Shown: positions 1-25,883, counted from the stretch's first letter. The stretch is DNA of 64,000 nucleotides from a virus (IMGVR_UViG_3300042474_001076:1-64000), one strand, 5' to 3'. The notes: generated by a model not told the origin, from the letters alone. Numbers and translations: made by a program.

Positions 1-576
1 ACAATAGAAGGTTTACCTGAAAAATATGTTTTAATTCATCCCGTACAAAATTGGGACTCAAGAACTTGGGATGCAAAGAAATGGCAAATGTTAACCAAAC
101 TATTAAACGAAAGAGGTATTGCCGTTGTGTCTATTGGTAAAGATTCGTCTGAACTTGGTGGGTCTAATGTGGATAAACCAGTATTTAATTTCAAAATTGA
201 TTTAGGATTAAACTTAATGAATAATACAGATATGGATCAGGCTTGGTACCTCATCCAAAATAGTATGTGTTTTATTACGATGGATTCGGGTCTATTACAT
301 TTAGCAGGAACAACCGACGCAGAGATAATTCAATTAGGTAGCTCAATAAATCCTGAGTTTAGATCACCATATAGAAAAGGTTCACAAGAATATAAATACC
401 ATTATGTGGTTGGTGGTTGTGGTTTGAATTGTGCTTCCGACATGAGGTATGGTGTTAGAGAATGGCAATCAATACAAGGTATACCGTCACTCGTTAATTG
501 TTTGGAAAGAAAAGAAACATTTGAGTGTCACCCAACAATATTTTCGGTTTATAATAAAGTGTTAGAAATAGTGTAG
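1..576 (+). CDS. Glycosyltransferase, GT9 (heptosyltransferase-like) family, 5'-truncated by the window
   Basis: Frame is open from base 1 (TIEGLPEKYVLIHPVQNWDSRTWDAKKW...). It carries GT9-type motifs YVLIHP...RTW and FITMDSGLLHLAGT, plus a C-terminal Cys cluster. Confidence 0.75.
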   Translation, partial: TIEGLPEKYVLIHPVQNWDSRTWDAKKWQMLTKLLNERGIAVVSIGKDSSELGGSNVDKPVFNFKIDLGLNLMNNTDMDQAWYLIQNSMCFITMDSGLLHLAGTTDAEIIQLGSSINPEFRSPYRKGSQEYKYHYVVGGCGLNCASDMRYGVREWQSIQGIPSLVNCLERKETFECHPTIFSVYNKVLEIV

Positions 577-583
577 TTAATGA

Positions 584-590
584 TATTTAT
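584..590 (+). promoter_or_regulatory. TATTTAT putative late promoter element
   Basis: The motif lies 15 nt before the ATG at 606 and recurs before most structural genes. Confidence 0.55.
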
Positions 591-605
591 TGTTAAACAA
601 CAATA

Positions 606-1601
606 ATGGCAACAACAAGACCTTTTTCGTATAACACAGGATCACCAATATCAGGAACAACCCAAGTTGGAAATTTAGCAGTCGGTACCCCCGTATCTGG
701 ATTCACAGGAATGGAGTGGTGGAACGGACCCGATGAAGATTTAGGTTATGTAATTGCACAACCTGTTAGTGGGGATACTCAACCAACTCCTATTTCAGAT
801 GTAACGGCTTCAGTTGGATTCTTTAGAACTAGTGGGTTTAATGATAATGAATTTATTGATATTGCAAATATACTTTTAAATGAAACCTATAATAATGTGT
901 TAGACGCATCGACAGAATTAACTTATAACGGATATTGGAATTCATATGTTGAAAAAGGTGGGAATGGTTTAACTCCTGAAACTGCTGGAGATAACGCTTT
1001 TCAAATAAAAACGGATTACTCTGGATCAACTGATGGATTATATTGGATTAAAAATGATAATATTAGTGGTGGAACACCATTCCAAATATACGCAGATATG
1101 ACAACAAATGGAGGCGGATGGACATTATTACTTACAAATCAAAACACCGCTAAATGGACATATTCAAACTCCATATTATTAAATGAATTTAACCCTGTTA
1201 TAAGTGGTTCAAACTATTCCATAGTTGCTTATGGTGATTATTTAAAAAGTTCAGGTGGGACATTCCAATATATGATAGATGCTTATCAAAGAACAAGATT
1301 TGGTGGTATATGGTCAGCATCTAATGAATATACATTCCTTAAAACAGATAACACACAAACAAAAATTGACCTTGATATTAAATTTGGTACTTGGAATTAT
1401 AATGATGCTAGTATTGAACAACGTATGCCTTGGCGTAGTATTAGTAGTGGTTTATTAACCACATCAGTAAGTCCTGGTGGTGAATGGTGGGGAACTTTAG
1501 TTACTAATGGTGGTTGGACCCCAGCACCTTGGATTAATGCCGATTGTGGTGATCAAGGGTGTATGCCTAATCCAGGAATTATATGGTATTGGGTAAGATA
1601 A
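606..1601 (+). CDS. Putative virion protein: shared N-terminal domain plus fibrinogen-like (FReD-type) C-terminal domain
   Basis: The N-terminal ~115 aa are paralogous to the next gene. The C-terminus has the GLYWI...IYADMTTNGGGWTLL fibrinogen-like signature. Confidence 0.6.
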   Translation: MATTRPFSYNTGSPISGTTQVGNLAVGTPVSGFTGMEWWNGPDEDLGYVIAQPVSGDTQPTPISDVTASVGFFRTSGFNDNEFIDIANILLNETYNNVLDASTELTYNGYWNSYVEKGGNGLTPETAGDNAFQIKTDYSGSTDGLYWIKNDNISGGTPFQIYADMTTNGGGWTLLLTNQNTAKWTYSNSILLNEFNPVISGSNYSIVAYGDYLKSSGGTFQYMIDAYQRTRFGGIWSASNEYTFLKTDNTQTKIDLDIKFGTWNYNDASIEQRMPWRSISSGLLTTSVSPGGEWWGTLVTNGGWTPAPWINADCGDQGCMPNPGIIWYWVR

Positions 1602-1618
1602 AATATAATTAAATTAGT

Positions 1619-2722
1619 ATGGCAACATCAAGACCTTTCGCATATAACACAGGATCAACGATATTAGGAACAACACAAATTGGTTCATTATCTGTTGGCA
1701 TTCCAACATCTGGATTTACTGGAAACCCCAAATGGTGGAACGGACCTGATGAGGATTTAGGATATGTTATTTGTAGACCAAACACTAATGGAAATCAACC
1801 AAATCCTGGTGGTTTACCCGCCTTCATAAGATTCTCAAGGTCAAAATTAAAAACAGACCAATCATTTATTAATTTAGTTAATTCTGTATTTAAACAAACA
1901 TTTACAACGACCACTGAGTGTACATCGTATTTAACAACAAATAATTATTGGACTTCTTTTGTTGGTGGTGGTGGTGGTTTTGTACCTGGAGATTTTACTT
2001 TTACAGATGGCACTGTTTTGTACACGACAAATACAGTTACATTCACTAAAACTGGAACAATATGTTTAGAAGGTGTTTGGGTTAGTGGTCTCTATGTTAT
2101 AAAAATAACTGGAGGTTATAATACATCTCCAGATGTTTGGAATATAAATTGGTATCAAACTGCGGCTGAAGCATTATTGTATAAGCAAACACAGTCTTAT
2201 TTAAATAGATCTGGATCCTTATCAAAAAATAATCCCGGCGGTGAATCATTTATTTATGCAGTTATAGATGTTACTATAGGAAGCACTCTAAAATTTGAGT
2301 TATCTCGAACCGATTTACCACCACAGAATGCTGCGTCAGGTGTTTTAAATATATATAATAGTTCATTTAGTGGAACACTTGTAGATACAATAACAGTTAC
2401 ACAAGTAAGTGCGTGTTATCTTACTACAACAATGGTTCAATATAAAGGATTGTTAGATGATGGTCCTGAATTAACGGCAATGAGACAATTGCGTGAGCAT
2501 TACAGAGGTGATGAATACTATGAAAATGGACTTATAGAATATTATACAAATTCTGAAGCTATTATTAATGGTATTAATGCTAGTGAAGATCCATCTATTG
2601 ATTATGAATTTATATACCAAAGTGTTTTAAAAGTTAAAAATTATGTTGATCAGTCTATGTGGAAAGAAGCAATAGATGAATATATAGACACCTATTTTAT
2701 TTTAAAAAACAGATATATTTAA
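1619..2722 (+). CDS. Putative virion protein: shared N-terminal domain plus CFI-box-CTERM-like C-terminal domain
   Basis: MATSRPFAYNTG...WWNGPDEDLGYVI is shared with 606..1601. The C-terminal ACYLTT...DDGPELTAMRQLREHY resembles the CFI-box pattern CFIATA...ELxxLRxFRD. Confidence 0.55.
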   Translation: MATSRPFAYNTGSTILGTTQIGSLSVGIPTSGFTGNPKWWNGPDEDLGYVICRPNTNGNQPNPGGLPAFIRFSRSKLKTDQSFINLVNSVFKQTFTTTTECTSYLTTNNYWTSFVGGGGGFVPGDFTFTDGTVLYTTNTVTFTKTGTICLEGVWVSGLYVIKITGGYNTSPDVWNINWYQTAAEALLYKQTQSYLNRSGSLSKNNPGGESFIYAVIDVTIGSTLKFELSRTDLPPQNAASGVLNIYNSSFSGTLVDTITVTQVSACYLTTTMVQYKGLLDDGPELTAMRQLREHYRGDEYYENGLIEYYTNSEAIINGINASEDPSIDYEFIYQSVLKVKNYVDQSMWKEAIDEYIDTYFILKNRYI

Positions 2723-2746
2723 TTATAACCACAATTAAAACATATT

Positions 2747-2878
2747 ATAAAAAAATTAATTAAAAATATCTTAAATGAGTATTCGGAAGATAATAAAGAT
2801 TTATATTACACTATTGTACATACTGATTTTACAAGTTTAGGTGATGGTTCTTTTGATAATATGAGATTTGGTTTATAA
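2747..2878 (+). pseudogene. Possible degenerate small ORF lacking an ATG (IKKLIKNILNEYSEDNK...FGL*)
   Basis: A 43-codon open frame starts at ATA and begins with a KKLIKNILxE-type leader like other small genes here. Confidence 0.3.
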
Positions 2879-2951
2879 TGATATATTTACAGTAATCTAA
2901 ACTTACCTATTAATTAAATATAAAAATCTATATTTATATTAAAAGAATTTA

Positions 2952-4571: not shown

Positions 4572-4632
4572 TATAATTAATTTACTATTGTTTTTTTTAT
4601 TTGATGTTTTATTATTAAAATAAAAAAATAAC

Positions 4633-5880
4633 ATGAAAATATTTGTTCAGATAGCCTCGTATAGAGACCCACAATTAGAACCAACAATTAAGAATATGTT
4701 GGAAAACGCAAAACGTCCTAAAAATTTAAGACTTGGGATTTGTAGACAATATAACCCCGACGACCAATTTGATTTGTTAGAAGATTATAGAAAAGACAAA
4801 AGGTTTAGAATTATAGATGTTTTATATACTGAGTCAAAGGGAGTTTGTTGGGCAAGAAACCAAGTTCAACAAGTATATGGTGGTGAAGAATATACACTAC
4901 AAATTGACTCTCATATGAGGTTTGAAAAAGATTGGGACGACACTCTAATTAAAATGATCAAACAACTTCAGAAAAAAGGATTTGATAAACCTTTATTAAC
5001 AGGTTATGTTTCTTCATTTGATCCGGATAACGATCCTGCGGGTAGAGTACAAGAACCTTGGAGAATGGCGTTTGATAGATTTATTCCTGAAGGGGCGGTA
5101 TTCTTTTTACCTGAAACAATTCCCGGATGGCAAGAAATGAAAGAACCTGTAACGGCAAGATTTTATTCTGCTCATTTTGCTTTTACTTTAGGTAAATTTA
5201 GTGAAGAGGTTCAACATGATCCTGAATTTTATTTTCATGGAGAAGAAATTTCAATTGCTGTAAGAGCATATACTCATGGATATGATTTGTTTCATCCCCA
5301 TAAGGTTGTTATTTGGCATGAATATACTCGTAAGGGTAGAACAAAACAATGGGATGACGATAAAGAATGGGGTAAAAAAAATGAATTTGCTCACAAAAAA
5401 AATCGTCAGTTATTTGGTATGGATGGTGAAGAAATTACTTTAGATTTTAGTAAATACGGTTTTGGTACAGAAAGATCATTAAGAGATTATGAAATATATT
5501 CAGGTCTTTTGTTTTCAAAAAGAGCGGTACAACAATATACCTTAGATAAAAATTATCCTCCAAACCCACATATTTTTGAAACAGAAGAAGAATTGATGTC
5601 AAGTTACGCATCAATATTCAAACACTGTATTGATATTGGGTTTACTCAAGTACCTGAGAAAGATTATGAATTTTGGGTGGTTGCCTTTCACAATGAAAAC
5701 GATGAAACCCTTTTTAGGAAAGATGCTGACATCAATGAAATTAATTCAATGATGAATGACCCTGATGGGTATTGTAAAGTATGGAGAGATTTCCAAACAA
5801 CACATAAACCAAAATACTGGGTTGTTTGGCCTTTTAGTACGTCAAAAGGTTGGTGTGAAAGAATAACAGGAAATTTATGA
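4633..5880 (+). CDS. GT60-like polypeptide N-acetylglucosaminyltransferase (PF11397 GlcNAc-type)
   Basis: IFVQIASYRDP, G.CWAR, LQIDSHMRF...WD and YFHGEEI..AVRAYTHGYD are the characteristic Gnt1/GT60 motifs. Confidence 0.85.
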   Translation: MKIFVQIASYRDPQLEPTIKNMLENAKRPKNLRLGICRQYNPDDQFDLLEDYRKDKRFRIIDVLYTESKGVCWARNQVQQVYGGEEYTLQIDSHMRFEKDWDDTLIKMIKQLQKKGFDKPLLTGYVSSFDPDNDPAGRVQEPWRMAFDRFIPEGAVFFLPETIPGWQEMKEPVTARFYSAHFAFTLGKFSEEVQHDPEFYFHGEEISIAVRAYTHGYDLFHPHKVVIWHEYTRKGRTKQWDDDKEWGKKNEFAHKKNRQLFGMDGEEITLDFSKYGFGTERSLRDYEIYSGLLFSKRAVQQYTLDKNYPPNPHIFETEEELMSSYASIFKHCIDIGFTQVPEKDYEFWVVAFHNENDETLFRKDADINEINSMMNDPDGYCKVWRDFQTTHKPKYWVVWPFSTSKGWCERITGNL

Positions 5881-5937
5881 TTTTAATATCATATACTTAA
5901 TATTGATTTAATAATATAAACAAAAAATATAATAAAA

Positions 5938-6309
5938 ATGGAATACCCAATAAGTGAAATTTTAGATAGATATTCAATTGCCGTTTTAAAAAAACAAAGA
6001 TTAGATGCCGATAATGATGTTGAATTAAAAGATTTGTCGGAAGTAATTGAAGATTATAAAATAATTAATTCTCAAGTTATTGAGACTTATATCGATAAAT
6101 TAATTTCTATTAATGGAGAGATATGGGATTTAGAATCTGATATTAGAAAAGGCAAAGAAGGTGAATTAGGATTAGAAGAAGTTGGTAGGAGAGCAATAAG
6201 AATTAGAGAATTCAACAAAATTAGAGTTGGTTATAAAAATATAATCGTTGAAACTTTTGGTGAAGGATATAAAGATGTTAAAATGAATCACGCAAGTTCT
6301 GATGTATAA
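5938..6309 (+). CDS. Small helical protein (DUF6165/DUF4254-like), typical of glycosyltransferase loci
   Basis: SEILDRYSI..LK...INGEIWDLESDIR...N..R..K pattern. Confidence 0.5.
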   Translation: MEYPISEILDRYSIAVLKKQRLDADNDVELKDLSEVIEDYKIINSQVIETYIDKLISINGEIWDLESDIRKGKEGELGLEEVGRRAIRIREFNKIRVGYKNIIVETFGEGYKDVKMNHASSDV

Positions 6310-7888
6310 GATAGTAATTTCCCTAACAACAGTACCCGAACGTTTAAATCAAGATGTTGAGGATGGTTTTAAATTGGTTATGAAATCAATTTGTGAACAA
6401 AATTTCAATAATTATGAAGTACATTTAAATTTACCTTTTACATATAATGTTACGGGTGAAGAATACATAATACCACAATGGTTAGATGACTATCAAGAAT
6501 CATATGACCATTTAAAAATCTTCAGAACGGAAGATATGGGACCACCAACAAAGGTTATTCCAACTATCATTCGTGAAGACAGTAATACGTTATTAATCGT
6601 TGTTGATGATGATTTAGTTTATCATGAAGATATGATCTTAGAACATATAAAATACCATATAGAGTTACCTAATTCTGTTGTACTATATGACGGTAGAAGT
6701 TTAGTGACTCCAAAGTACGGTGATTTAAGGGATTCTTGGGTTTTAAGTGTAAATGAACCATTGGAGGTAAAAGACTTACAACATTATAAATCAGCATCAT
6801 ATTTTGTTAAATATTTTGAAACTGAATTCTTTAGTGATTTTGTGGGTAAAACAAAATCAGATGATGTTTTATTGTCATTTTACTTTAAGTTTAAAAAGAT
6901 AAAAATGTTTGTTGTTCCCTACGTCCCTGATGTTGATAAGTTATCAACGTATGATGATTGGTATAAATTTCAAGGGGTAACAACATTTCCAGTTATTAGA
7001 CATTCAAATAGTGTAACTAATACTGGATGTAATCACCCAACAATGTTAGACGAACAACCAAAATTTTTTATCCCTGAGGAATTTAAAATAATTGAAAATC
7101 CAAATTATAAACCATCGGATAATGTTATTGTTAGTTCTAAACCAAAAATAGTTGATGGGATTGCTAAACCCAATATTCCTGAAATCATCGAAATTAATAA
7201 TATATCCGACTTAGTGTATAAATTAGCCGGCGATTTTAATAAAATAGATAAAAGATTTTGGGACACAACACATCTAAGTGGAGAACAACATAATAATGAA
7301 AGAAGTAAACCGGCACCTTATATTAAAAAAACCTCTGAAATTGCCAAAGTTTTAGGACTTAAAACCGTTGTCGAAATTGGATCAACAAGACATGGTCTTA
7401 CTCCAAAATGTATTAACTATTACTATTTAGGTGATAATCCTTTTGTGTCACCTCCTTGTTGTGCTGACGGTCACGGAGGTATAATGTTTGCGTTAGAAGG
7501 TTTTGATGTTCATTCTGTTGATATTGATAAAAATTGTGTTATTCATGCTGAGTGGTCATTTGGGTCATTAGGTAGAGAAATTCCTAAAAATTTACATTTA
7601 AATATTCCAAAAGACGGTATTGAATTTTTAAAAGAGTTTGATGGAAAAATTGATGTTTTATTTTTAGATGGTTGGGATGTCGGAACCGATTTATATAAAG
7701 AAAAACATTTAGAATCATTTGAAGTGTGTAAAGATAAATTATCCGACACCCATTTAATTCTAATTGATGATACCGACTTTATATTAACAAATGAAGGTAA
7801 AGATGCTTTATTATCACCTCATTTAATATCATTAGGGTACATTTTACTTTTTGATGGTAGACAAAAATTATATATAAATAAAATATAA
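6302..7888 (+). CDS. GT-A fold glycosyltransferase fused to a class I SAM methyltransferase
   Basis: N-terminus has ISLTTVPERL, DMGPPTK and VVDDDLVY. C-terminus has VVEIGSTR, SVDID, IDVLFLDG and ILIDD. Confidence 0.7.
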   Translation: MYKIVISLTTVPERLNQDVEDGFKLVMKSICEQNFNNYEVHLNLPFTYNVTGEEYIIPQWLDDYQESYDHLKIFRTEDMGPPTKVIPTIIREDSNTLLIVVDDDLVYHEDMILEHIKYHIELPNSVVLYDGRSLVTPKYGDLRDSWVLSVNEPLEVKDLQHYKSASYFVKYFETEFFSDFVGKTKSDDVLLSFYFKFKKIKMFVVPYVPDVDKLSTYDDWYKFQGVTTFPVIRHSNSVTNTGCNHPTMLDEQPKFFIPEEFKIIENPNYKPSDNVIVSSKPKIVDGIAKPNIPEIIEINNISDLVYKLAGDFNKIDKRFWDTTHLSGEQHNNERSKPAPYIKKTSEIAKVLGLKTVVEIGSTRHGLTPKCINYYYLGDNPFVSPPCCADGHGGIMFALEGFDVHSVDIDKNCVIHAEWSFGSLGREIPKNLHLNIPKDGIEFLKEFDGKIDVLFLDGWDVGTDLYKEKHLESFEVCKDKLSDTHLILIDDTDFILTNEGKDALLSPHLISLGYILLFDGRQKLYINKI

Positions 7889-7889
7889 T

Positions 7890-10280
7890 ATGGAAAATTT
7901 TTTTGATGAGTCATTACACTTTTTAGGTAAAACTAATAATACCATAACCGCATTAAACATTGGTTCAATGGATGGTGTGATGTTTGACGAGATGATTGGG
8001 TATACTAAAATGTACAATTTTAATGTTCTATATGTTGAACCAATACCTTACCTATTTGATAGATTAAAAAGTAATATTGGTGATGTAGGATTATTTGAAA
8101 ATAGTGCAATATCTGATTATGATGGTGAAATTGAAATGATGACAATTGACAAAGAAGTCATTGATAGTGGTTTAATTCACAGTTGTTTTTATGGTATGAG
8201 TGCGGTTTATCCACCTAAAAATGGTTTGGGAAGTGAAGGCGATAGACTTACAGTTGAAAAATATGGTAAGTTGGTTAAGGTTCCATGTATCACATTTGAA
8301 ACCTTAATGGATAAACATAAACTAAATAACTTTGATATTCTTAAAGTTGATGCTGAAGGACATGATTTTAAAATTTTTAAACAAATTGATTTTAAAAAAT
8401 ACACACCAAAGGTTATAAGATTAGAATGGATTAATTTATCTGAACAAGAACAAAGTGAGATAATTGAAATATTCAAAACTAATGATTTTATATATGAAAT
8501 ATCGGGTCAAGATATTGTTGGGTTACCAAAATATTTTTATGATGAAATTTTTTCATCAAGTAAACCAAAAAATAATATTATTAAAAAAACTGTTAATACT
8601 CAAAACAATGTTATTACTATAGTTACGGGACTATGGGATATAGGTAGAGGAGAACTCCAAGAAGGGTGGTCTCGATCATACCAACATTATTTAGATAAGT
8701 TTCAACAATTATTACAAGTTGACGTAAATATGATAATTTTTGGGGACGAAGAATTAGAAAAATTTGTATTAGATAATAGACGTGATGAAAATACTCAATT
8801 TGTTCGTAGGGATTTATCATGGTTTAAGAATAATGAATTCTACGATAAAATTCAAAAAATTAGAACCAATCCTGATTGGTATAATCAAGTTGGTTGGTTA
8901 ACAGATTCGACACAAGCTAAACTAGAGATGTATAATCCTTTAGTTATGTCTAAAATTTATCTTTTACACGACGCAAAAATTTTAGATAAGTTTAATTCAG
9001 AATATATGTTTTGGGTTGACGCCGGATTAACTAACACAATACATCCAGGATATTTTACACATGATAAAGTTTTAGATAAATTACCCCAATTAGTTAATAA
9101 TTTTCACTTTGTTTGTTTTCCATATGAAACCAATAGTGAAATACACGGATTCAAATATCAAGAGTTGTGTGATTTAGTTGGTAAACCTGTTAATATGGTT
9201 GCTCGAGCTGGTTTCTTTGGCGGAAAAAAAGACGCAATAACAGAAATTAATAGTATCTATTATGGGTTAATGAATGACACATTATCACAAGGGTTAATGG
9301 GAACCGAAGAGTCATTATTTACAATTATGACATACAAGTATCCAAACTTAATTACTTATTCAGAAATAGAAGGTAATGGGTTAATGGGTAGATTCTTTGA
9401 GGATTTAAAAAATACGACTGTTGAGGTTAAATCGGAAGTATCAAAAGATGTTGTTGTAAATAATTTGGACACATCAAAGGTTGGTCTTTATGTTATCACA
9501 TTTAACTCACCAAAACAATTAGAAGTACTTATCCAATCAATGTTGGATTACGATAAAGATTTTATTGAGAAACCAAAGAAATTCTTATTAGATAATTCAA
9601 CTGATTTATCAACAACACCAAGATATATTGAACTATGTGAACAATATGGTTTTGAACACATTAAAAAAGATAACATTGGGATTGTTGGTGGTAGAGTATT
9701 CGTTGCAGAACATTTTGATGAAACTGATTTAGATTTTTATTATTGGTTTGAAGATGACATGTCATTTTACCCTAAAAAAGGTGAGGTATGTCGAAACGGA
9801 TTTTCTCGTTATGTTGATAATTTATATCAGAAATCATTAGAGATAATACAAAAAGAAAATTTTGATTTTCTTAAACTTAATTTTAGTGAATTCTACGGAT
9901 CCAATGATATTCAATTTTCATGGTATAACGTACCACAAGATTTTAGAAAAAATCATTGGCCAAAAAATCCTAAATTACCTACTCAAGGATTAGATTCTAA
10001 TTCACCTAAAACAAAATTTGATGAAATACATATTCACAAAGGATTACCATATATTACGGGTGAAATATTTTTGTGTAATTGGCCAATTGTTTTAACAAAA
10101 AAAGGTAATTATAATTGTTATTTAGAAACAAAATGGGCTCACCCTCATGAACAAGTACTTATGAGTTATTCTTATCAAGAAACAGTAAAAGGAAAAATTA
10201 ATCCTGGATTATTATTATTAACTCCAACGGAGCACCATAGATTTCATCATTATGATGGTTCTTTAAGAAAAGAAAGTTAA
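7890..10280 (+). CDS. Three-domain enzyme: FkbM methyltransferase, HtrL/WlaTC-like glycosyltransferase and GT2-like domain
   Basis: FkbM motifs NIGSMDG, VEP and LKVDAEGHD. HtrL motifs TIVTGLWDIGR, YNPLVMSK and WVDAG. GT2-like motifs VITFNSP and WFEDD. Confidence 0.75.
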   Translation: MENFFDESLHFLGKTNNTITALNIGSMDGVMFDEMIGYTKMYNFNVLYVEPIPYLFDRLKSNIGDVGLFENSAISDYDGEIEMMTIDKEVIDSGLIHSCFYGMSAVYPPKNGLGSEGDRLTVEKYGKLVKVPCITFETLMDKHKLNNFDILKVDAEGHDFKIFKQIDFKKYTPKVIRLEWINLSEQEQSEIIEIFKTNDFIYEISGQDIVGLPKYFYDEIFSSSKPKNNIIKKTVNTQNNVITIVTGLWDIGRGELQEGWSRSYQHYLDKFQQLLQVDVNMIIFGDEELEKFVLDNRRDENTQFVRRDLSWFKNNEFYDKIQKIRTNPDWYNQVGWLTDSTQAKLEMYNPLVMSKIYLLHDAKILDKFNSEYMFWVDAGLTNTIHPGYFTHDKVLDKLPQLVNNFHFVCFPYETNSEIHGFKYQELCDLVGKPVNMVARAGFFGGKKDAITEINSIYYGLMNDTLSQGLMGTEESLFTIMTYKYPNLITYSEIEGNGLMGRFFEDLKNTTVEVKSEVSKDVVVNNLDTSKVGLYVITFNSPKQLEVLIQSMLDYDKDFIEKPKKFLLDNSTDLSTTPRYIELCEQYGFEHIKKDNIGIVGGRVFVAEHFDETDLDFYYWFEDDMSFYPKKGEVCRNGFSRYVDNLYQKSLEIIQKENFDFLKLNFSEFYGSNDIQFSWYNVPQDFRKNHWPKNPKLPTQGLDSNSPKTKFDEIHIHKGLPYITGEIFLCNWPIVLTKKGNYNCYLETKWAHPHEQVLMSYSYQETVKGKINPGLLLLTPTEHHRFHHYDGSLRKES

Positions 10281-10318
10281 TATTTAGTAGTTCAGCATAT
10301 TTATAGTAAAAACTATAA

Positions 10319-11581
10319 ATGGAATTTTTCATTAAAAAGAATGCAACTCTCCCTATATTAAAATTACAGGTTGTAAAAGACGGTAGAAGTGATTATAATT
10401 CTTTCATGGATATGATTGAAGAGTCCTCTATCTTCTTTTCAATGACTAATGTTGAAACCGGGATTCCTAAAATTTCAACAAGTTCGGCTGGATTTGTTGA
10501 GAAAGTACTTTTGGATCCTAATGCGGAACCTGAATATTACATTTATTATCAATTCAAACCACAAGACACAAATAAAACTGCAAGATATGAGGCTCAATTC
10601 TTATTAAGAAATTCTCAAGGAGTTTTAATATTACCAATACGAGAACAATTATTTATTAATGTACAAGAAAGTTTCATTGCGGAAGATTTACCATATGAAA
10701 GTTGTTATTTAATAGAGTTTCCTTGTTGTAATAATGTGTGTCCAACAACAACTACAACAACTACAGAATGTTGTTGTCCTCAAGACACTCCAACATCAAC
10801 ACCAACACCAACTGTCACACCAACACCGGGATTATCACCTACACCTACACCAACACCGGGATTATCACCTACACCTACACCTACACCGGGATTATCACCA
10901 ACACCAACACCAACAAAAACTCCAATACCTCTTCCGTCACCAATAGATGAGTTTTGTTTTAGTGTGTTTATTCAATCACCAACAGTAACTCCAACACCAA
11001 CAATTACACCAACAGGAAGTCCAATTCCTTGTTGTAATACTTGGTATTATTTTGGGGGACCTGTTTCTGGATCTACATTCCAATGGTTAGATTGTTCAGG
11101 AAACACAACAACCTTTAGTGCTTCAACGGGATACGCTTCTACAATATGTGCGTTATCCGTTATAAAATTATCGGGAGATGGTCAAACTTATCTTGAAAGT
11201 ACTTGTACTTGTGGTTCCGCACAACTAACCCCAACCCCGACTCCTACACAAACACAAACTCCAACAACAACTCCAACAACAACTCCAACAACAACACCAA
11301 CAACAACACCAGGATTATCACCAACTCCAACTCCAACAAAAACAAAAACACCAACAACAACAACAACACCAGGATTATCACCAACACCAACACCAACAAA
11401 AACACTTACTCCTACTCCTACCGTAACACCAGGATTATCACCGACACCTACACCAACAAAAACACCTACACCAAATCCTACCGTAACACCAGGATTATCA
11501 CCGACACCAACACCAACACCAACTTGTGGAATTATAACTAATAACACTATTTATATAAAATATAATACTAAATCATGTTAA
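10319..11581 (+). CDS. Putative baseplate-attached fibre protein (BppU-like N-terminus) with PT repeats and a Cys module
   Basis: [13 protein letters not shown]...YQF...DT....YEAQF resembles the BppU N-terminal domain. PTPTPGLS repeats follow. TATTTAT lies at 10298-10304. Confidence 0.55.
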
Positions 11582-13413
11582 CTGACGAAATAAAAGAAAT
11601 TATCGAAGAACTTTTTAACGCCACACCTAATGATGTGGGCGTTGGTTATGGTACAAAAATAAAAAATGGTGAAATGACTAATGAAGAGTCAATCATATTT
11701 TTTGTACCAAAAAAAATACCGTCACATTTAATTCCTGAAAATGAATTATTACCTGATGTTGAATTTACTTTAAGTGATAGAGTTCTAAAAACCGATGTTA
11801 TTGAGGTGGGTATAATTAAAACTTTTGCTTGTGATCCTAGTTGTTACACTTGGACAAATCCAGGTACACCACCAACAAATCGTCTACAACATAGACCAAT
11901 TAAAGGTGGTATATCAATTACCTCTCAAACTAAACTTGGTTTTGTAGGTACTTTAGGATTTATTGCGGTTGATGTTGCAACTCAAGCTTTGGTTGGTGTA
12001 ACAAATAATCACGTTGTAATTAGGGACGCATCATACACAAGTCAAAGAAACCCATCAGGTCTTATACAAAATGAATATGATATTATTTCAGGTGGGGCGG
12101 TACAACCTGATTCTGCATTTCAAAATGGGGAATCATCTTCACCTGCTCCTGCAGCTATGATTGGTCAAGTTGTTAGGTATGTTCCGATATCCGTGTCGGG
12201 TGGAGTTAACAAAGTTGATGGAGCACTAATTTCAGTTGAATGTAATCCAGTTATCGATATTGCGGAATCTTTCAAACAATTTGGTTTGACTTATAATTCT
12301 CCTTACGTTTTTGCAACAACGACAGAAATTAATAATTTATTAACAACAAATCCAATGTTGTTTAGTAGTGGTAGAACAACAGGAGTTAAACAAGGAATAC
12401 CTTGTCCACTAAGAACTTTCACGTTGGGTTTTGCTGGTGGTGTCAGTGGATATAATATCCAAGGAACATCAACCACAATTCCATTCACGGATATAATTAT
12501 GTTTGTAAGACCCGAAAACGACCCTAACTTAGCAACCGTTTGTAACTACCCTATTTTTGCTGGTGATTCTGGATCTGCATTGGTTGCAGATTTTAGTGGT
12601 ACATCAAAAATTGTTGGACTAGTGTTTGCTGGTTCTGAATATTATGGGTTTGCTTGTAGAATTGACCACGTAGCAAGTGAACTTGGTATTCAATCTTGGG
12701 ATGGAACAACTAAACCATACGTTGATTCAACCACAATATCCTATATTACAGTGCCAGGGTTTAATAGTGTTAAAACACAAGTTTCGGGGGGTGACACATA
12801 TTGGCAAGTAGGCGCTTATAATTTAACAGTACCATGTGATATTAGTCCAACACCTACTGGTACACTTACACCCACACCTACCCCAACCACACCTTGTTGT
12901 AAAACTTGGGCTTATTATGGTGGTCCGTTTGGTACTGGTTCAACAATTTCTTATGTTAGTTGTGAAGGTGTAACAATTTTATTACCCGTTCCCACCTTCC
13001 AAACTGGTACCATATGTGCAATAAGTGCAAGTGTTATTTCTGGATCGGGTTCTGTTTATACTGAAGATTCATCATGTGATTGTATTCCAATTCCAACACC
13101 AACACCAACTGTCACACCAACACCGGGATTATCACCAACCGCAACACCAACCGTAACACCAAGCGAAACTCCGAGACCAACCGAAACTCCAACAACAACA
13201 CCAACACCAACAATAACAACAACACCAGGATTATCACCATCAACAACACCAACCAAAACACCGACACCAACAGTAACTAAAACTAAAACTCCTACTCCAA
13301 CGGTAACTAAAACTCCAACACCTACACCAACTAAAACACCTACACCAACACCTGTTAACGCAGCTGTTGGTCCATTTACGTCATTTGTGACATTTGAATC
13401 ATATAATTGCTAA
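11575..13413 (+). CDS. Nal1-like trypsin-fold serine protease with Cys module and PT tail
   Basis: GTLG...TNNHV (His), VDGAL (Asp), SGRTTG and GDSGS (Ser). The N-terminus has a VGVGYG.K..G...I.F.V.KK prodomain. Confidence 0.8.
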
Positions 13414-13424
13414 TAATAAAAAAA

Positions 13425-15353
13425 ATGATAACAGAAGAAATAAATAAAAAATTAAAAGAATGGAGTGATAATACACCATCTGATGTTGGTGTTGGTTATG
13501 GGTTTAAACAAACTAACGGTATTTATACTGGTGAAGTTTGTATTGTTTTTTCGGTGAAAGAAAAAAAACCGTTAAGTAATTTATCCGATAATGAAATTTT
13601 ACCATCAGAAATAAAAATAAGTGAAAATAAAACACTTAATACTGATGTAATACAAGTTGGTGAAATTTATACTTTACAATGTAGTAGAACAACACCTATC
13701 ACTAACTCACCTCCGCTTTGTGAGCCTTTTGTATTAACACCACCAACAAATAGATCTGCATTTGCAACATTGAGAGGTGGTATATCTATAACTTCGGTAA
13801 GAAAAGGTAATTCTGTTGGTACTTTAGGTATGATTGTGCAAGACATACACACGAACGCTTTAGTTGGTTTAACAAATAATCACGTTGTAATTGGAAACTC
13901 TATAAAGGCTCAATATCAAAATTTAAATCCTGTATTGGGAAATAATTTCCCAATAACTAACGAAATAAATCCAGATAATGACGTTTGCCAACCTGGGGAA
14001 TTTGGGTTTCAAACAGGTAGTAAATTTGGTCAAGTTGTTAGATATGTACCAATTTCACCCTATCAAACTTTACCACCAAGTAGCGGATGGATAGCATCTC
14101 CATTAGGATTACCAAAAAATAATGTAGATGCCGCATTAGTTAGTATTAATTGTAATGAAATTGATTTTAATCAATCTTTTAAATTTTCGGGGTTTGAAGC
14201 TTTAATGCCTAATCCATTACCTTTTGCAACAACCGCTGAAATTAATAACTTATTGGTAACAAACCCACAATTATATAGTACTGGTAGATCAACCGGACCA
14301 AAGGGTTTAGGAACACCGGGATGTGAATTAAGGATTAGTCAGATAAATGTTGCAACTGCTGTTGGACCTTATAGTTGGCATTTAGCTGCTGGCGGTCAAC
14401 AATATAGTACAGCTGCAGATTTTAACCCAAGATTAATAGCATTTTTTAAACCAAGCGGTATACCTGCTCAACCACACTGTTTATGGCCATGTGCCGGTGG
14501 TGATTCAGGATCAATGTTAATTGCTAATTTTGGTACCCAACCATCACCAAACTTTAAAGTAATAGGTTTAGTATTTGCCGGTAATAGCTGCCCATCTTAT
14601 CCCACTGCTACTGGAGCCAACAATGTTTTTAACACTAATTACGCCATAACTCCTCCACCAATAGGATGTGGTTTACCAAATTCATACAACAATTGGTTAG
14701 GTTATGCTTGTAGAATTGATGACGTTGCAAATGAGTTAGGAATTAAAGCTTGGACAGGTGGGACAGCTCCATTAGTAAATCCAAACCTAAATTTAATTAC
14801 TTTACCGGGATTAAACCCAATCACAGCAACAACCTGTTTAAATGAATATTATTACCAAGTAGGTACCACAATGACCCAATCCGTATGTAGCGCACCACCA
14901 AGTCTTATTTTAACAAGTCCTCAGTTCTTAAATGGTCAAACATTAGCTCAGTCGGTAAGACATCCAATCTGTCCTCCAGGTCAAAATTATAGTGTTGGAT
15001 TAGATTGGTTTATAAATAACTTAAACACAAATGATGTTATCAGTTATAGTTTATTAATGGAAGATATTAACGCACCTGGATCAAGTCCTAGTGGATATTT
15101 TGTTCATTGGAAAGTAATAAATATCCCACCAACTCAAACATCAATTAATTTATGGACATCAGGACTCTCAGGATGGCAAGCAGGTGCGTCTATACAACAA
15201 ACAGATTGGTTCCCAAATGCGGTTAATCCAAATGGTTATGGTGGAACTTGTCCTCCAAATCATACATACAGAATATCTATTACGGCATTTATAACACCTG
15301 CAGCTGGTGGTGGTACGATAACAAGTAATTTACTTACATTTATTAGTAGTTAA
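13425..15353 (+). CDS. Nal1-like serine protease fused to a C-terminal PEBP (YbhB/YbcL) domain
   Basis: TNNHV/VDAAL/GDSGS triad. The C-terminus reads LTSPQF..G...NYS..LDW...SLLMEDINAP...FVHW.V.NIP...GYGG.CPP.H.Y. ATG at 13425 is preferred over TTG at 13407. Confidence 0.75.
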   Translation: MITEEINKKLKEWSDNTPSDVGVGYGFKQTNGIYTGEVCIVFSVKEKKPLSNLSDNEILPSEIKISENKTLNTDVIQVGEIYTLQCSRTTPITNSPPLCEPFVLTPPTNRSAFATLRGGISITSVRKGNSVGTLGMIVQDIHTNALVGLTNNHVVIGNSIKAQYQNLNPVLGNNFPITNEINPDNDVCQPGEFGFQTGSKFGQVVRYVPISPYQTLPPSSGWIASPLGLPKNNVDAALVSINCNEIDFNQSFKFSGFEALMPNPLPFATTAEINNLLVTNPQLYSTGRSTGPKGLGTPGCELRISQINVATAVGPYSWHLAAGGQQYSTAADFNPRLIAFFKPSGIPAQPHCLWPCAGGDSGSMLIANFGTQPSPNFKVIGLVFAGNSCPSYPTATGANNVFNTNYAITPPPIGCGLPNSYNNWLGYACRIDDVANELGIKAWTGGTAPLVNPNLNLITLPGLNPITATTCLNEYYYQVGTTMTQSVCSAPPSLILTSPQFLNGQTLAQSVRHPICPPGQNYSVGLDWFINNLNTNDVISYSLLMEDINAPGSSPSGYFVHWKVINIPPTQTSINLWTSGLSGWQAGASIQQTDWFPNAVNPNGYGGTCPPNHTYRISITAFITPAAGGGTITSNLLTFISS

Positions 15354-15383
15354 AATTAAAGAAAAAAAAACAAACATTAAAAA

Positions 15384-18300
15384 ATGAATTATGATTTTAA
15401 TTTTATTGGTTTTTATAACTCAAAACCTTCTTGGGTTGGGTATGATAACACAACTCCATTAACAATTAGATGGAATAATCTTGGTTATTGGGAAATGATC
15501 GGTTGGGAGGGTATCTTCTGTGGACAACCAAGATCAACAGATAGTGACTCTTTTCCTGATACAGGATGGTTTATTTATGATCCAACTGATAGTTGTTCAG
15601 ATGCGTCTTTTGATGTAACAATTGGTGAATGTCCATTACCGGGAGTCGCAGTATTTCAATCTTGTTGTGACCCTAGTATATATATACGAATAGATAATAT
15701 CCCAAGTACTTTTTTTCCTATAACCACTAATTCATATTATTTATCTTCATTATTATTTAATGGGTGTATAACTAACGTTTCTCCATCCACGCCAGCATCA
15801 ACTCTAATATCATATACTGATGATTTGGCAACCTTAATAGAACAATTGGGTGATTGTTCCGTATGTTTATTAGAAGAACCTTGTCCAACACCAACCCCTA
15901 CAGTAACACCAACTATGACAGTAACACCGGGACTACCTCCAACACAAACACCAACACAAACTTCAGGGTTATTACCAACACCAACACCCGTTTGTCCGAT
16001 ATGTGCAACGGTTAGTGCTTTACCTGGTTTAGGATCTTCAACAACAATTAATGGTGTTACAGTAACCGCCTCAGGTTTTGGTGATATTCTAACAGATCCA
16101 GGGGGTAGTTTTGCTTGGTGCATGATACCACTCGGATCAGCAACTAATACCGCATTTTTAGGGTCCGCATCATTTTTATCATCGCCATTTACTTATATTT
16201 TAAATTTTAGTTCACCGGTTAATAATTTAGTAATAAGATTAATTAATTATAGTTCACCACCAGGTTTCGGATCTGAATCATTTACGTTTACCACAAATAG
16301 TGGTAACCCTGTTTTATCTTCTTGTGATTATTGTTGTGCTACAATTATTGGAAATGTTGTTACATCAATTTTTTGTCCGATTTTACCAGGAACTAATGAT
16401 GGTGGCGGTACGTTCACAATTTCAAATATATCTACATTTACCACTTTAACCATAACAGGACCAGGTGGTTATGGTGGTACCATTGTTGACATATGTTCAG
16501 ATTCGGTTCAACCACCCGTATCACCAACACCAACACCAACTGTTACACCAACATCAGGATTATTACCATCACCAACACCAACAAATACTCCAGAACCAAT
16601 TGATGCGAACTGTTTACCTTTAATAATGACAAGGTTAGATACATCTTCTCCGGCTTCTGTCGGTTTATATTCTTATAATCCAACATCAAATATAACAACA
16701 TTACTAAATTTACCCAATTCTTTAAATGTATTAGGTCAATCTATGACAAATACATCAACAAAATTATGGATATGTCAAGACGCTTCTCAAGGAATAAGAG
16801 AATGGGATATTACGTTAAGTCCTTGGAATGCAGTTTGGTCTAGGGACATTGCATCTCCAAGTGCTATTCCAGGGTTAGGTTGGTTGGCAGGTGCATTATG
16901 TGTATATAGGGATCCAATAACAAATATAGTCAACCCTAACTTATTAGTATCCATGGGATTTAGTAGTACAGGTTTTGACATTGTTTTAGTGGACATTAGC
17001 GGAACTGTTTGGTCTAAAACTTCATTATTTCAATTAAGTACTTTATCAGCTAATAGACAAATTACTGAAGTTGTTATGAACAACAACGGTAAAATGATTA
17101 CAATAGGACTTGACACATCAACATTACAAAAATACGTTACTCAATTTCAATATATTGCAGGTTCTTGGCAGGTACAACTCGACATTCTAATTTCAATAAC
17201 AACTACTATACAATCATTTTTCCAATGGAATAATTTATTTTATATAGGAGGATTTCCTGGTAATGAACTTTGGTCAATATCAAATGTATCTCCGTATACA
17301 ACTTCATTACTTGGAAACTTTTTGCAGAGTAGGTCTTTTGATTCAGGGCAAAGTCCTGAATGTATTGATTTGGAGTTTATACCTCCATATGTTACACCAA
17401 CACCAACTGTAACACCAACTGTTACCCCAACAGATCCTCCACCAACACCAACACCAACACCTCCACCATTACCTTGTGATTGTGATCAAGAAACTCTTTT
17501 ACCTGCAATAGGCAATAGTATTATGTATTCAAATGGTCTTACAATTTCCGCAACTGGTACAGGATCTGTTGCAATTTATCCATCTCCATCTTGTTCGGAA
17601 ATTTATTGTGGTTTTTGTGCGATCCAAAATTCGATTTACATTGGTGGGAGTGGTCCATTCACATATACATTAAATTTTAGTTATCCAGTTAATGATTTTA
17701 AAATTTTTTTAGTTGGATATAATGTTGGAGAATCTTTTACTTTAACAACTAACACAGGGAGTAATACTCCCAATATTAATTTATGTTCAGGATGTTGTGT
17801 TTCAATTTCAGGAAATGTAATTACCGCCTCTAATATAAATAGTGATTGTGATGGCGGGGTAGTAGGTTCAGGTCTATTCAACATAAACAACTCACTTCCT
17901 TTTACATCTTTAACAATATCAGGACCAGGTGGTGGATCTGGTTCAGTATTAACATTTTGTGATTCCGTACCAGAAAATATTATTTGTTTAGAAAGATGTA
18001 ATGTTTTATTTGTTGCATTAGATGCGAGTAATGTTAGTTTGGATGTTTATTCTTATGATATTACAACTAATATCCCAATTTTTTTAACACCATTTTTTAG
18101 TGGGTCATATCCATCACTTTCAATTTATGGAATTGCACACACATCTAATAAAATCTTTTTACAAACTGTTGTTTCTATACCTGGAGGGACCCAATGGGTT
18201 ATTTATGAGTACGACTACCAACCATGTCCTTTTAGTGCAACATTTAATAGAATTATAACAATTCCACTTCCTATTGTTATGGGTAGCGGATTGACGGCAA

Positions 18301-20321
18301 AAAGTAATTCCACATTAATTGGTAGTATTACTGTTAGTTCAACGATTACAGAAATAGTAGAATTTGATATTACGACAACAACAGCATCATTATTAACTTT
18401 AATTACATTACCTCCAAATGTTCAAGTTTTTGAGGATTTAATGTTTACAACAACATCTCCAAGTAAACTATTAGTTAATGTAGGTATGGGTTTTGGTGGT
18501 TTTTTTGGGATAAATCAGTATGACTATACTACTTTATCATTGGATGTTTATGTTCCTTTTAATCCTTTTACTATATTTAACACTTATGGTTTATTTACTG
18601 ATAATAGTCAGATATATTTTACCGGAGACGGTCAAAACCCTATTGGTCCATTATGGAACATTAACCAATCTCCTCCATACCCATTTACTTTAGTTCAAAA
18701 TTGTGGGCTTAGAGTATATAACGCCTCAAGCATTCCAGAATGTAACGATTCATTGTTATATCTTAGTGGATCGACACCAACTCCAACACCAACACCAACG
18801 GTTACTCCAACTGTTACCCCAACAGATCCTCCTCCGACACCAACACCGACACCAACACCAAATTGTCCTGACTGTGAAGAATTTGCAAACTTACCATTTA
18901 TTTATGAATTTTTAAATAATCCCGGAGGATCGGTTACTACGGCATCGTTAACATATTCTAGTGGTATGGTAATAACTTCAACAGGATTTGGTAATTGGCC
19001 AGCATATGCAGGTGTTTATACTTGTTCCCCTTCTTTTAACATATCTAGTCCGGTATTTGGATTAGGTGCTCAACCAAGTACTCAGTGGCCAATTCCACCT
19101 CCCGCAATAGTAACATATTCATATACAATGACATTTAGTATTCCTGTTACCACTGTCACTTTAAGAATTTCCTATATTAGAACATCTGGAAATCCCCCAT
19201 ATACTGCTCTTAGTACTGCAATGACTTTTACCACTAATATTGGAAATCCACTTATCACATCATGTGATCACTGTTGTTCAACTATATCTGGAAATGTAAT
19301 TCTTGGTGGAACTGGTGGTAGTGATTGTTTTACTTTTATAACAACAACAGGTTTAGGTGCGGGAGTATTTACCTTTAGTAACTCATTACCATTTACATCG
19401 TTAACTGTTATAGGAAATAAAATACGAGCTTCACAAACTTTAGAAATTTGTGGGATTGGTTATGTTATTGATCCGACAACACCAACACCAACACCAACAA
19501 ATACTGTAACACCAACAAAAACTCCAACAAATACACCAACTCCAACAAATACACCAACAAATACACCAACAGGAACTAACCCACCACCAACGCCAACTCC
19601 AACTCCAACAAATCCACCCCCACCAACCACAACACCAACACCAACACCAACAATAACTATAACTCCCACACAAACAAAAACACCTACCCCAACAAAAACT
19701 GTAACTCCAACAAAAACACCAACACCTACTCCAACACCAGTATTTGTAACATATTTAGTTCTTGATTGTTGTACTAAGTCAATATTTAGATACGTTAATT
19801 TACCATCAACATTTACACCTGGAAATGTGATTATTGGTACCGATTTACAATGTTATGAGGTAATTACATTACAAATAGGAGCAATAAGTTTAATATGGAA
19901 TAATACCACATCCGTAAACTGTGATACTTGTATATCAACCTACCTTTGTGTAACCCCAACACCAACCCCAACAAAAACTAAGACTCCAACCCCAACGGTA
20001 ACTAAAACTCCAACATTGACACCGACTAAAACAACAACTCCAACGGTAACCCCAACTAAAACGGTAACCCCAACCTTAACAAAAACCCCAACCCCAACCT
20101 TAACAAAAACCCCAACCCCAACTCCGAGTTGTTTTTACTATAGGATTAATAATACTAATGCGACAAAAGAAGTTTCTATAACATTTACACCGTGTTGTAT
20201 TACCGAGATTTCACCTCTGATTATCGGTCCAAGTGGAGTAGCAACTATTTGTTCATCTACAGCACCTTCACTTCCCGCTGGTGTGACATCAATTTTATTG
20301 GGTCCTTGTCCAACTTGTTAA
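15384..20321 (+). CDS. 1645-aa modular Cys-rich protein with PT linkers (putative fibre or adhesin)
   Basis: Three copies of a beta-rich module (YTLNFS.PV...TTN.GNP...CC..I.GNV...FTSLT), two propeller-like regions and CC-modules, all separated by PT tracts. Confidence 0.6.
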
Positions 20322-20359: not shown

Positions 20360-20415
20360 TTTAACAAAGGTGAATGTCGTTATACACGGCAGCCAATATA
20401 CCAAATTTAAAACAT

Positions 20416-25834: not shown

Positions 25835-25854
25835 TATTTATAAATATCATATAA

Positions 25855-25883
25855 AATAAAAAACCCACCTGTGTGGTGGGTTT
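25855..25883 (-). terminator. Intrinsic terminator
   Basis: AAACCCACC-tgtgt-GGTGGGTTT hairpin followed by a U-rich run on the minus strand. Confidence 0.75.

Follow-up and report, generated by a model that had tools for sequence, protein, structure and literature searches.

Glycosyltransferases of family GT60 are polypeptide alpha-N-acetylglucosamine (GlcNAc) transferases, which in Dictyostelium and Trypanosoma cruzi start mucin-type O-glycans on Ser/Thr-rich domains, according to the accessible part of a review by West (PMC8724618). We describe here a gene cluster at positions 1-20321 of a 64,000-nucleotide stretch of viral DNA (IMGVR_UViG_3300042474_001076:1-64000, hereafter the window, covering nucleotides 1-64000 of an 88,141-bp IMG/VR virus record), in which a gene for a GT60-like enzyme lies among genes for further putative glycan-modifying enzymes and for four proteins with long Pro-Thr (PT) tracts. 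The serine-rich-repeat adhesins of Gram-positive bacteria follow the same logic as the one proposed here: GtfA/GtfB add GlcNAc in the cytoplasm to a Ser/Thr-rich repeat protein encoded by an adjoining gene, further glycosyltransferases extend the glycan, and the product leaves by a special export route, the accessory Sec system. Phage-directed glycosylation of virions is already known as well, documented in mycobacteriophages and hinted at in the cultured Xanthomonas jumbo phage XacN1. In mycobacteriophages, phage glycosyltransferases decorate virion proteins and the glycans shield the particle (Freeman et al. 2023, as reported in the accessible text of PMC12619734). The paper on XacN1, in its accessible parts, reports that purified virions contain at least two glycoproteins and proposes the products of two open reading frames (ORFs), the phage glycosyltransferases ORF328 and ORF334, as their source; those parts name neither the GT60 family nor an acceptor. 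The moraphages, freshwater jumbo phages of up to 307 kb with predicted Bacteroidota hosts, have four core orthogroups of putative glycosyltransferases whose function is left open among DNA, serotype and virion, and the accessible text of that paper has 0 occurrences of proline or threonine (PMC12619734). In the literature searched, mostly outside subscription journals, we found no paper linking GT60 or PF11397 to phages, bacteria or PT acceptors.

Set beside these systems, the locus suggests to us that a GT60 enzyme and a two-domain HtrL/GT-A enzyme may form a widespread and undescribed prokaryotic and phage module for mucin-type O-glycosylation. This module would correspond, in the cytoplasm, to mucin synthesis by the protist polypeptide alpha-GlcNAc-transferases, and might be its evolutionary origin. 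Its target in bacteria of many phyla would be a dedicated Pro-Thr/Ser repeat protein, glycosylated ahead of export, maybe by twin-arginine translocation (Tat) and then, in Bacteroidota, by the type IX secretion system (T9SS), and abundant freshwater jumbo phages would have captured it to coat hypervariable virion fibre proteins with methylated or carbamoylated glycans. Taken as a whole, this chain of proposals is tentative, and we regard it as falling somewhat short of probable. Its central part, namely that the cassette carries out cytoplasmic mucin-type protein O-glycosylation acting on PT tracts, seems to us slightly favoured by the comparisons below. If right, a different initiating family, a different type of acceptor and an unexpected bacterial counterpart would be new here. 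The features of the window that bear on this proposal are as follows.

1-576, + strand: GT9 protein (heptosyltransferase family, PF01075), C-terminal 191 aa, cut by the contig start
2930-2938, + strand: ATATTTATA, a promoter-like motif at -21 relative to the PT1 start codon
2952-4571, + strand: PT1, candidate acceptor with Cys-rich modules, a small domain at the N-terminus and PT sequence in six tracts totalling 204 residues, 95 of them Thr
4633-5880, + strand: GT60/PF11397 polypeptide alpha-GlcNAc-transferase-like enzyme of 415 aa, the proposed initiating enzyme
5938-6309, + strand: ORF of 123 aa inside the enzyme block, variable, no family match
6302-7888, + strand: probable fusion of a GT-A glycosyltransferase with a methyltransferase of class I, one of the variable accessories
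7890-10280, + strand: three-domain enzyme with FkbM methyltransferase, HtrL and C-terminal GT-A domains (Pfam and AlphaFold2 (AF2) model)
10297-10305, + strand: ATATTTATA, a promoter-like motif at -21 relative to the PT2 start codon
10319-11581, + strand: PT2, candidate acceptor with a BppU_N-like immunoglobulin (Ig)-fold N-terminal domain (~120 aa) and a Cys-rich module set among three PT tracts that total 178 residues
11575-13413, + strand: PT3, in which a trypsin-fold/NAL1-like protease domain precedes 114 residues of PT tract and a Cys-rich module; phrog_20754 'protease' 3.6e-20
15384-20321, + strand: PT4, candidate acceptor of 1645 aa, modular; its six PT tracts total 274 residues, and it contains 56 Cys

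All ORFs named in the original prediction, which was made from the DNA alone, are present on the + strand at the coordinates listed, and its assignment of the 4633-5880 product to GT60 was borne out by a match to PF11397 'GlcNAc' (E 1.6e-71, 242 bits against a cut-off of 21) in two stretches, profile positions 2-44 and 95-349, and by a match to phrog_24687 (2e-173). The GT60 label itself we take from the description of PF11397, the Pfam family that presumably contains the T. cruzi and Dictyostelium enzymes. Residues D92-S93-H94, corresponding to the DxH metal-binding triad used by GT60 and GT27 enzymes, are invariant in 15 diverse homologues of 40-90% identity. The C-terminal region (residues 294-415, 120 residues) lies outside the Pfam match, and the sequence has neither a signal peptide nor a transmembrane segment. 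Sequence and profile searches of the PDB with the enzyme, with the GT60 alignment and with the HtrL/GT-A alignment gave no match and hence no solved relative. By analogy with its family, the enzyme most likely puts the first alpha-linked N-acetylhexosamine (HexNAc), GlcNAc by family precedent, on Thr. It thus resembles the protist initiators in its PF11397 membership, its conserved metal-binding triad and the Thr/Pro-rich repeats that are its candidate acceptors. The protist enzymes are counterparts of Golgi GT27 enzymes (PMC8724618, accessible part), whereas the phage and bacterial proteins, with no signal or transmembrane segment, would be cytoplasmic, and they differ further in their extra 120-residue C-terminal region and in being paired with an HtrL/GT-A enzyme.

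That partner is encoded by 7890-10280. The original prediction had read it as a fusion of FkbM, HtrL and GT2 domains, and Pfam supported the first two: FkbM (PF05050) at residues 25-196 with 56.2 bits against a cut-off of 22.7 (TIGR01444, 43.2 against 37.7), and HtrL_YibB (PF09612) at residues 242-490 with 72.1 bits against 24.1. The GT2 profile did not match, no Pfam family being found at E<=5 for the C-terminal ~270 residues (520-796); a GT-A fold was recovered there from the AF2 model of the last 566 residues (pLDDT 84.5), which contains two GT-A domains. The HtrL domain is closest in fold to GT6, with BoGT6a at Z 13.3 (root-mean-square deviation (rmsd) 3.4, 196 aligned; VIA, model residues 10-274) and the ABO transferases at Z 13.1. 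For the C-terminal domain the nearest fold is B4GALNT1 (Z 15.2, rmsd 3.6, 203 aligned; VIA, model residues about 292-561), followed by POMGnT1 (Z 13.9), GnT-I (Z 13.6) and RmlT (Z 13.1), so that in the predicted model this domain is a GT2/12/13-like GT-A fold. With the whole model as query, the top Foldseek matches were enzymes with two GT-A domains, namely Mimivirus R699 (6e-12), lysyl hydroxylase 3 (LH3), the chondroitin polymerase K4CP, LARGE1 and COLGALT1.

The remaining enzymes were of mixed standing. A GT9 assignment for 1-576 was upheld, the 191-aa fragment matching PF01075 at E 1.9e-15 with 57.3 bits against a cut-off of 22, while among NCBIfam models it matched lipopolysaccharide (LPS) heptosyltransferases and the Aah/TibC protein O-heptosyltransferase, all far below cut-off. 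The fusion of GT-A and methyltransferase domains proposed for 6302-7888 can be kept tentatively: Pfam matches were below threshold (GT2 E 0.016, Methyltransf_24 E 0.092), language-model look-alikes in the Atlas had a GT2 plus Methyltransf_24 architecture (score 0.92-0.93), and a PDB search gave chance matches at E about 1.

To place the cassette among other viruses we counted its parts by local tblastn in a close set, the best 80 of 367 GT60 relatives in IMG/VR (77-90% identity), and in a distant set of 20 loci. Databases hold more than 7,000 proteins matching GT60; with the XacN1 homologue as query, 18 more distant viral loci were added, and among 2.9 million IMG/VR contigs both pattern-based scans together detected ~385 relatives. 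Cultured phages with the gene number only four, namely XacN1, Xoo-sp13, CM1 and RAS14. The HtrL domain is present in 72/80 close and 16/20 distant loci, and the C-terminal GT-A domain in 65/80 and 15/20. The other parts occur in the close loci alone (0/20 distant in each case), in falling order the PT2 N-terminal domain (66/80), the PT1 N-terminal domain (51/80), FkbM (13/80), the GT-A/methyltransferase of 6302-7888 (11/80), GT9 (8/80) and the ORF at 5938 (7/80). Based on these counts, GT60 and the bifunctional GT-A/GT-A enzyme make up the core, and the other parts are decoration that differs between lineages. The enzyme set of the original prediction is therefore narrowed, since HtrL and the C-terminal GT-A domain alone are conserved partners of GT60 and GT9, the GT-A/methyltransferase and FkbM vary between lineages. 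Judged by sequence comparison, GT60 together with the predicted HtrL/GT-A two-domain enzyme is the conserved core across phages and bacteria. XacN1 has this core too: its ORF334 is a GT60 homologue with 48% identity to the window enzyme, and nearby genes encode a GT9, an HtrL/GT-A protein and a giant protein in which PS/PT tracts occur. In their backbones the two phages are unrelated (a search with the window polymerase did not match XacN1), and XacN1 carries a carbamoyltransferase in place of the FkbM and GT-A/methyltransferase accessories.

The four PT-rich proteins, which were likewise confirmed, have 770 tract residues together. When three more PT proteins of the 88-kb record are included (918 tract residues), the composition is 41% T, 30% P and 5% S; at the DNA level the tracts are degenerate tandem arrays. 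The proteins are modular, with N-terminal domains and small Cys-rich modules common to several of them; the C-terminal module of PT1 recurs in PT4 and the Cys-rich module of PT2 in PT3. The only family match of PT4 is phrog_15511, of unknown function, and it falls on a PT tract. At E<=5, Pfam gave nothing for the N-terminal domains of PT1, PT2 and PT4, for two inner pieces of PT4, for the PT1 C-terminal module or for the ORF at 5938. From their sequences, the phage acceptor candidates have no export signal. In mycobacteriophages it is the C-termini of capsid and tail-tube subunits that carry the glycans (PMC12619734, accessible text), whereas the candidate sites in this locus are the long PT tracts inside modular fibre-like proteins, and the initiator is GT60. 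Long Gly-Val-rich ORFs on the opposite strand over the PT tracts (15737-16123 (-) in the window; 9667-9951 (-) in the related locus L126) are by-products of the ACN-CCN repeat and can displace a true short PT ORF in simple gene calling; along the PT genes the GC skew takes strongly negative values.

A BppU-like anchor had been claimed for the N-terminus of PT2, and this had partial, tentative backing, at the level of fold only: residues 1-150 did not match PF10651 in Pfam (E<=5), and an AF2 model (pLDDT 79) gave an Ig-like sandwich. Against BFVD the model had 31 matches at E<=1e-3, the named viral look-alikes lying at TM 0.4-0.55 and including a BppU domain protein at rank 8, a baseplate component at 15, a minor tail protein at 28 and BppU_N proteins at 32, 34 and 50. 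Foldseek against the PDB returned generic Ig folds above E 1e-3 together with the phage NF5 baseplate chain 9m8o_P (TMq 0.46), and in the Atlas a BppU_N cluster first appeared at rank 17, with a 13% share.

PT genes accompany the cassette in the viral loci. A PT-tract gene is present in 71/80 close loci and directly flanks the enzyme block in 65/80, and the gene ending just before GT60 is hypervariable, ranging from ~170 to 3,140 aa. In the distant loci a P/T/S tract gene occurs within 10 kb in 10/20, and in the most divergent clade (L100 and L102, 37-39% identity) a tract gene lies immediately upstream of GT60. The co-occurrence that the original prediction proposed to check is backed by conserved gene order, seen both in bacteria and in three clades of viral GT60. 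Matches to TPTPTP numbered 4-44 in each of 10/10 GT60-bearing records, compared with 0-1 for a control pattern, and in the reverse test PF11397 was found in 9/69 searched viral records with a (TP)5-coding stretch. Short divergent PF11397-like genes were also seen together with (TP)5 repeats in two records, G052 (25603-26160, complete 108-kb record, E 1e-21) and G047 (13893-14558, 27-kb fragment, E 2.5e-12), which by sequence are possibly independent lineages of the GT60/PT pairing.

In bacterial genomes we found 433 GT60 relatives, and 80 loci of these matches were surveyed. GT60 and HtrL/GT-A genes are adjacent in many of them, in Gemmatimonadota, Bacteroidota, Pseudomonadota, Verrucomicrobiota and Acidobacteriota. 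PT/PS-tract genes occupy 10/139 flanking slots, as against 19/718 of the other genes (p 0.011). By a regex motif and a hydrophobic stretch, 14 ORFs in 13/80 loci and at least five phyla combine a twin-arginine-like N-terminus with a PT/PS tract; they lie within ~4 kb of GT60 or beside HtrL/GT-A genes, and more were seen by eye below the thresholds. Loci with such a protein by the cassette include L122, L106, L112, L151, L164, L159, L145, L141 and L149. A T9SS sorting domain stands above cut-off at the end of one Bacteroidota PT protein, and in a second it scored just below.

The TPTPTP-coding pattern was searched across five whole bacterial genomes, which had been chosen because they showed the adjacency. 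All 8/8 matches in G006 (5.2 Mb) fall in the gene beside GT60, as do both listed of 5 matches in Jiulongibacter sediminis (G005, 4.5 Mb) and 74-77/82 in a Saprospiraceae assembly (G009, 12.8 Mb); in a Vicinamibacterales genome the figure is 18/47, and the fifth genome showed background only. In three of the five, then, the listed PT-coding DNA is all or nearly all at the GT60 locus. The Jiulongibacter sediminis island (L122 4943-15145) encodes, in order, a UDP-sugar dehydrogenase, an epimerase, a second PF11397 protein, the PT protein, GT60, a carbamoyltransferase and an FkbM-HtrL-GT-A enzyme. Compared with the serine-rich-repeat adhesin system, the initiating family differs, and there are Pro-Thr tracts here instead of Ser-rich repeats; the bacterial acceptor candidates have a twin-arginine-like N-terminus, and those of the phage have no export signal.

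A further tie among the phage genes is the motif upstream of them. The original prediction had TATTTAT common to two PT genes and the structural genes, and we confirmed this, the motif standing at -21 before both 2952 and 10319 and at -40 before the sheath gene at 31331. It also precedes 606 (-22), 39157, the gp25-like gene at 60711 and 63088. On the sense strand, TATTTAT falls within 50 nt upstream of 20/55 genes, compared with 3.0 +/- 1.65 in shuffles and 9 for the antisense, and ATATTTATA has 13 copies in the window against 5.9 expected, a number reached in 0/100 shuffles. Among PT2 homologues it is found upstream in 35/36 distinct regions, nearly all at -19 to -23, and among GT60 relatives it lies about 43-51 nt before GT60 in 23/48. 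Some genes of unknown or replicative function are preceded by it too, and we therefore term it promoter-like and common to structural genes, rather than a proven late promoter. As a wider form, an (A)TATTTAT(A) element was noted 12-43 nt before ~20 start codons, for example at 2930, 10297, 24730(-), 25839(-), 31290, 35602 and 51115.

These observations can be assembled into a model. In the cytoplasm of the infected cell, soluble GT60 would add the first HexNAc to Thr of the PT tracts, its acceptors being PT1-PT4 and further PT-linker proteins encoded at 76-87 kb of the record, in the baseplate/fibre module. The glycan would then be extended by the HtrL and C-terminal GT-A domains of 7890-10280, either by two further sugars or by a repeating disaccharide, and the variable accessories (FkbM, the GT-A/methyltransferase of 6302-7888 and GT9, with the carbamoyltransferase in XacN1 and Jiulongibacter) would decorate it. 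Modification would take place inside the infected cell, before assembly or lysis, since the acceptor candidates have no export signal. Virion appendages are the likeliest fate because the motif is common to structural genes, PT2 has a BppU-like N-terminus and PT linkers occur in SprB-repeat proteins. A virion location is thus plausible for the acceptors, and at least some of them are probably virion appendages; that the PT proteins form a coat on the virion is a more doubtful suggestion, which we would put a little below an even chance.

Several observations weigh against this model. PT tracts are frequent throughout these genomes, occurring in 157/1012 genes of the close loci, and four of five related records have 34-44 TPTPTP matches each; some adjacency is therefore expected. 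PT genes fill 66/159 flanking slots in the close loci compared with 91/853 other genes (odds ratio 5.9), but these loci are near kin, several of them identical, so the p-value overstates their independence. In the distant XacN1-like set the corresponding figures are 2/40 and 8/349, which is not significant, and 10/20 of those loci have no tract gene within 10 kb. PF11397 did not appear in 60/69 PT-bearing viral records, and PT tracts therefore do not need GT60. By the criteria set, no flanking PT-tract gene was found in 67/77 bacterial loci, short ORFs having been missed in at least two of them. Hidden Markov models (HMMs) for Tat signals gave no confirmation of the bacterial N-termini: the best score was 14 bits for TIGR01409, against a cut-off of 16.7, in 1/10 proteins, formate_TAT reached E 0.2 in another bacterial PT protein and Pfam TAT gave none. 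The GT60 gene of the window itself has no TATTTAT motif, and the PT2 N-terminus, as noted, does not match the BppU_N model of Pfam.

From the phage data alone, the adjacency may be due to chance in a PT-rich genome; the genome-wide TPTPTP counts in bacteria argue otherwise. The main alternative, which we consider unlikely, is that the enzymes glycosylate other phage or host proteins, either at single regulatory sites as in Skp1 or on capsid or tail subunits as in mycobacteriophages, and that the PT tracts are plain flexible linkers brought close by a hypervariable accessory region. The spread of PT tracts over these genomes and through many viruses that showed no PF11397, and the non-significant adjacency in the XacN1-like loci, speak for it. 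So does Gnt1, a GT60 member that modifies a single hydroxyproline of Skp1. It accounts poorly for the three bacterial genomes with their listed TPTPTP-coding DNA concentrated beside GT60, for twin-arginine-like PT/PS ORFs near the cassette across phyla, and for a flank position kept in most close viral loci and in L100 and L102.

Distinctly improbable, in our judgement, is a cluster that remodels an envelope glycan of the host (LPS core, capsule or another glycoconjugate) during infection, where it could block superinfection or release progeny from receptors, with the PT proteins unrelated to it. The family names count in its favour and against protein glycosylation, GT9 and HtrL being named after LPS-core genes and HtrL/YibB coming from the rfa region of E. 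coli, and the GT9 fragment best resembles LPS heptosyltransferases. A survey of jumbo phages, in its accessible part, reads the multi-glycosyltransferase clusters of jumbo cyanophages as modifying outer polysaccharides, which fits this alternative as well. Family profiles, by contrast, detected no flippase, polymerase, ABC exporter or lipid-carrier transferase families among ORFs of >=120 aa in 1-23214, nor was a polysaccharide-export gene present among the 10 ORFs scanned in the Jiulongibacter sediminis island. GT9 is present in just 8/80 loci, and its NCBIfam heptosyltransferase matches are far below cut-off, one of them being a protein O-heptosyltransferase. The characterised GT60 acceptors, moreover, are polypeptides (PMC8724618, accessible part). 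The original prediction had itself named DNA or LPS as other possible targets, and we found neither a polysaccharide-export nor a DNA-modification context for the cluster.

Hypermodification of phage DNA, with glycans placed on hydroxymethylated pyrimidines to evade restriction, is very improbable: phage GT-A and GT-B enzymes that glycosylate 5-hydroxymethylcytosine are described in the accessible part of bioRxiv 10.1101/2023.12.21.572611, the cluster adjoins a DNA polymerase gene and 3/5 related records have a thymidylate-synthase-family gene, but the described DNA-glycan systems sit beside C5-methyltransferase and 5mYOX genes or ThyS genes (same source and part, whose main text has 0 occurrences of GT60), the cluster contains neither C5-methyltransferase with 5mYOX/TET nor a ThyS-like hydroxymethylase, the ThyS-family genes lie >100 kb from GT60 and are lacking in G002 (98% complete, GT60-positive), Tet_JBP was found in 0/5 records (weak evidence, since that search matched no control genome either), and in bacteria the PT protein that accompanies the cassette looks exported.

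Mucin-type glycosylation of PT proteins, if it is what the cassette does, has implications beyond this phage. A family that starts mucin-type glycans in protists is found as a conserved cassette in a very abundant group of uncultured jumbo phages and in bacteria of many phyla. The proposal would provide a testable model of glycan-coated appendages in large aquatic phages, with roles in adhesion, protease resistance or shielding. It would also give Gram-negative bacteria a new cytoplasmic route of protein O-glycosylation and connect the origin of mucin-type glycosylation in eukaryotes with prokaryotes. Work in culture could start from XacN1, Xoo-sp13, the Stenotrophomonas phages and Jiulongibacter sediminis.

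The source of the window (GC ~30%) is an uncultured jumbo myovirus with a genome probably near 290 kb, the 88-kb record being ~30% complete by CheckV. Neighbouring genes and structural landmarks are listed below.

606-1601, + strand: fibrinogen-like (GGGWT) domain protein; NF040941 E 1.3e-16, above cut-off; phrog_15727 'virion structural protein' 1e-8
1619-2722, + strand: paralogue of the N-terminal domain of 606-1601, with a different C-terminal part; blastp 1.1e-28, no family match
13407-15353, + strand: trypsin-fold/NAL1-like protease paralogous to PT3, ending in a PEBP domain and lacking any long PT tract; phrog_20754; PF01161 3e-10
20374-23214: family-B DNA polymerase, adjoining the glycosyltransferase cluster
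31331-34642: sheath gene, myovirus part
60711-61169: gp25-like gene, myovirus part
61176-63014: gp6-like wedge gene, myovirus part

The label of a T4-like phage, which the original prediction had given, was not sustained for the polymerase. The sheath, gp25-like and gp6-like parts are present, and a tblastn search with the polymerase matched 17 records of cultured phages at 23-28% identity, all of them Salinibacter, Nostoc, Anabaena or Dolichospermum phages (the best, Salinibacter and Nostoc phages, at 23%) and none from the T4 group; a near-identity DNA search with 1-20400 found no match among cultured phages. As to the accompanying statement that no description of such a system in a T4-like phage was known, a partial precedent exists in the XacN1 virion glycoproteins and the glycosyltransferases proposed for them. 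SprB repeats (PF13573, E 1.6e-21 and 1.5e-9) occur in the PT-linker proteins 76505-78958 and 80029-82089, downstream of the baseplate genes. SprB is a gliding adhesin of Bacteroidota, and the repeats hint at both the host and an adhesive role. Together with the closest bacterial matches of the GT60 gene, which are in metagenome-assembled genomes of Bacteroidota at 70-81% identity, they indicate a Bacteroidota host. In size, freshwater habitat, Bacteroidota host and glycosyltransferase-rich core, the moraphages fit the window phage, a comparison made by description only.

The fibrinogen-like domain of 606-1601 carries the motif YCDxxxxGGGW. Such domains often bind acetylated sugars; this gene is preceded by TATTTAT and lies beside the putative GlcNAc-adding cluster. 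Its paralogy with 1619-2722 covers the first 113 residues, with 50% identity over 114 aa. The protease 13407-15353 is 38% identical to 11575-13413 over 493 aa, and as a neighbour it is not clearly a member of the system. Most of the large proteins at 63-85 kb had no match in PHROGs or Pfam, and for the giant tail-region ORFs 39157-44232, 44547-51092 and 63088-68781 (1691, 2181 and 1897 aa) the sole family match was a weak one to a tail protein, in the second ORF. The thymidylate-synthase-family genes of the related records G001, G003 and G004 (up to 288 bits) lie far from the glycosyltransferase cluster, and that of G001 is in pieces in two frames.

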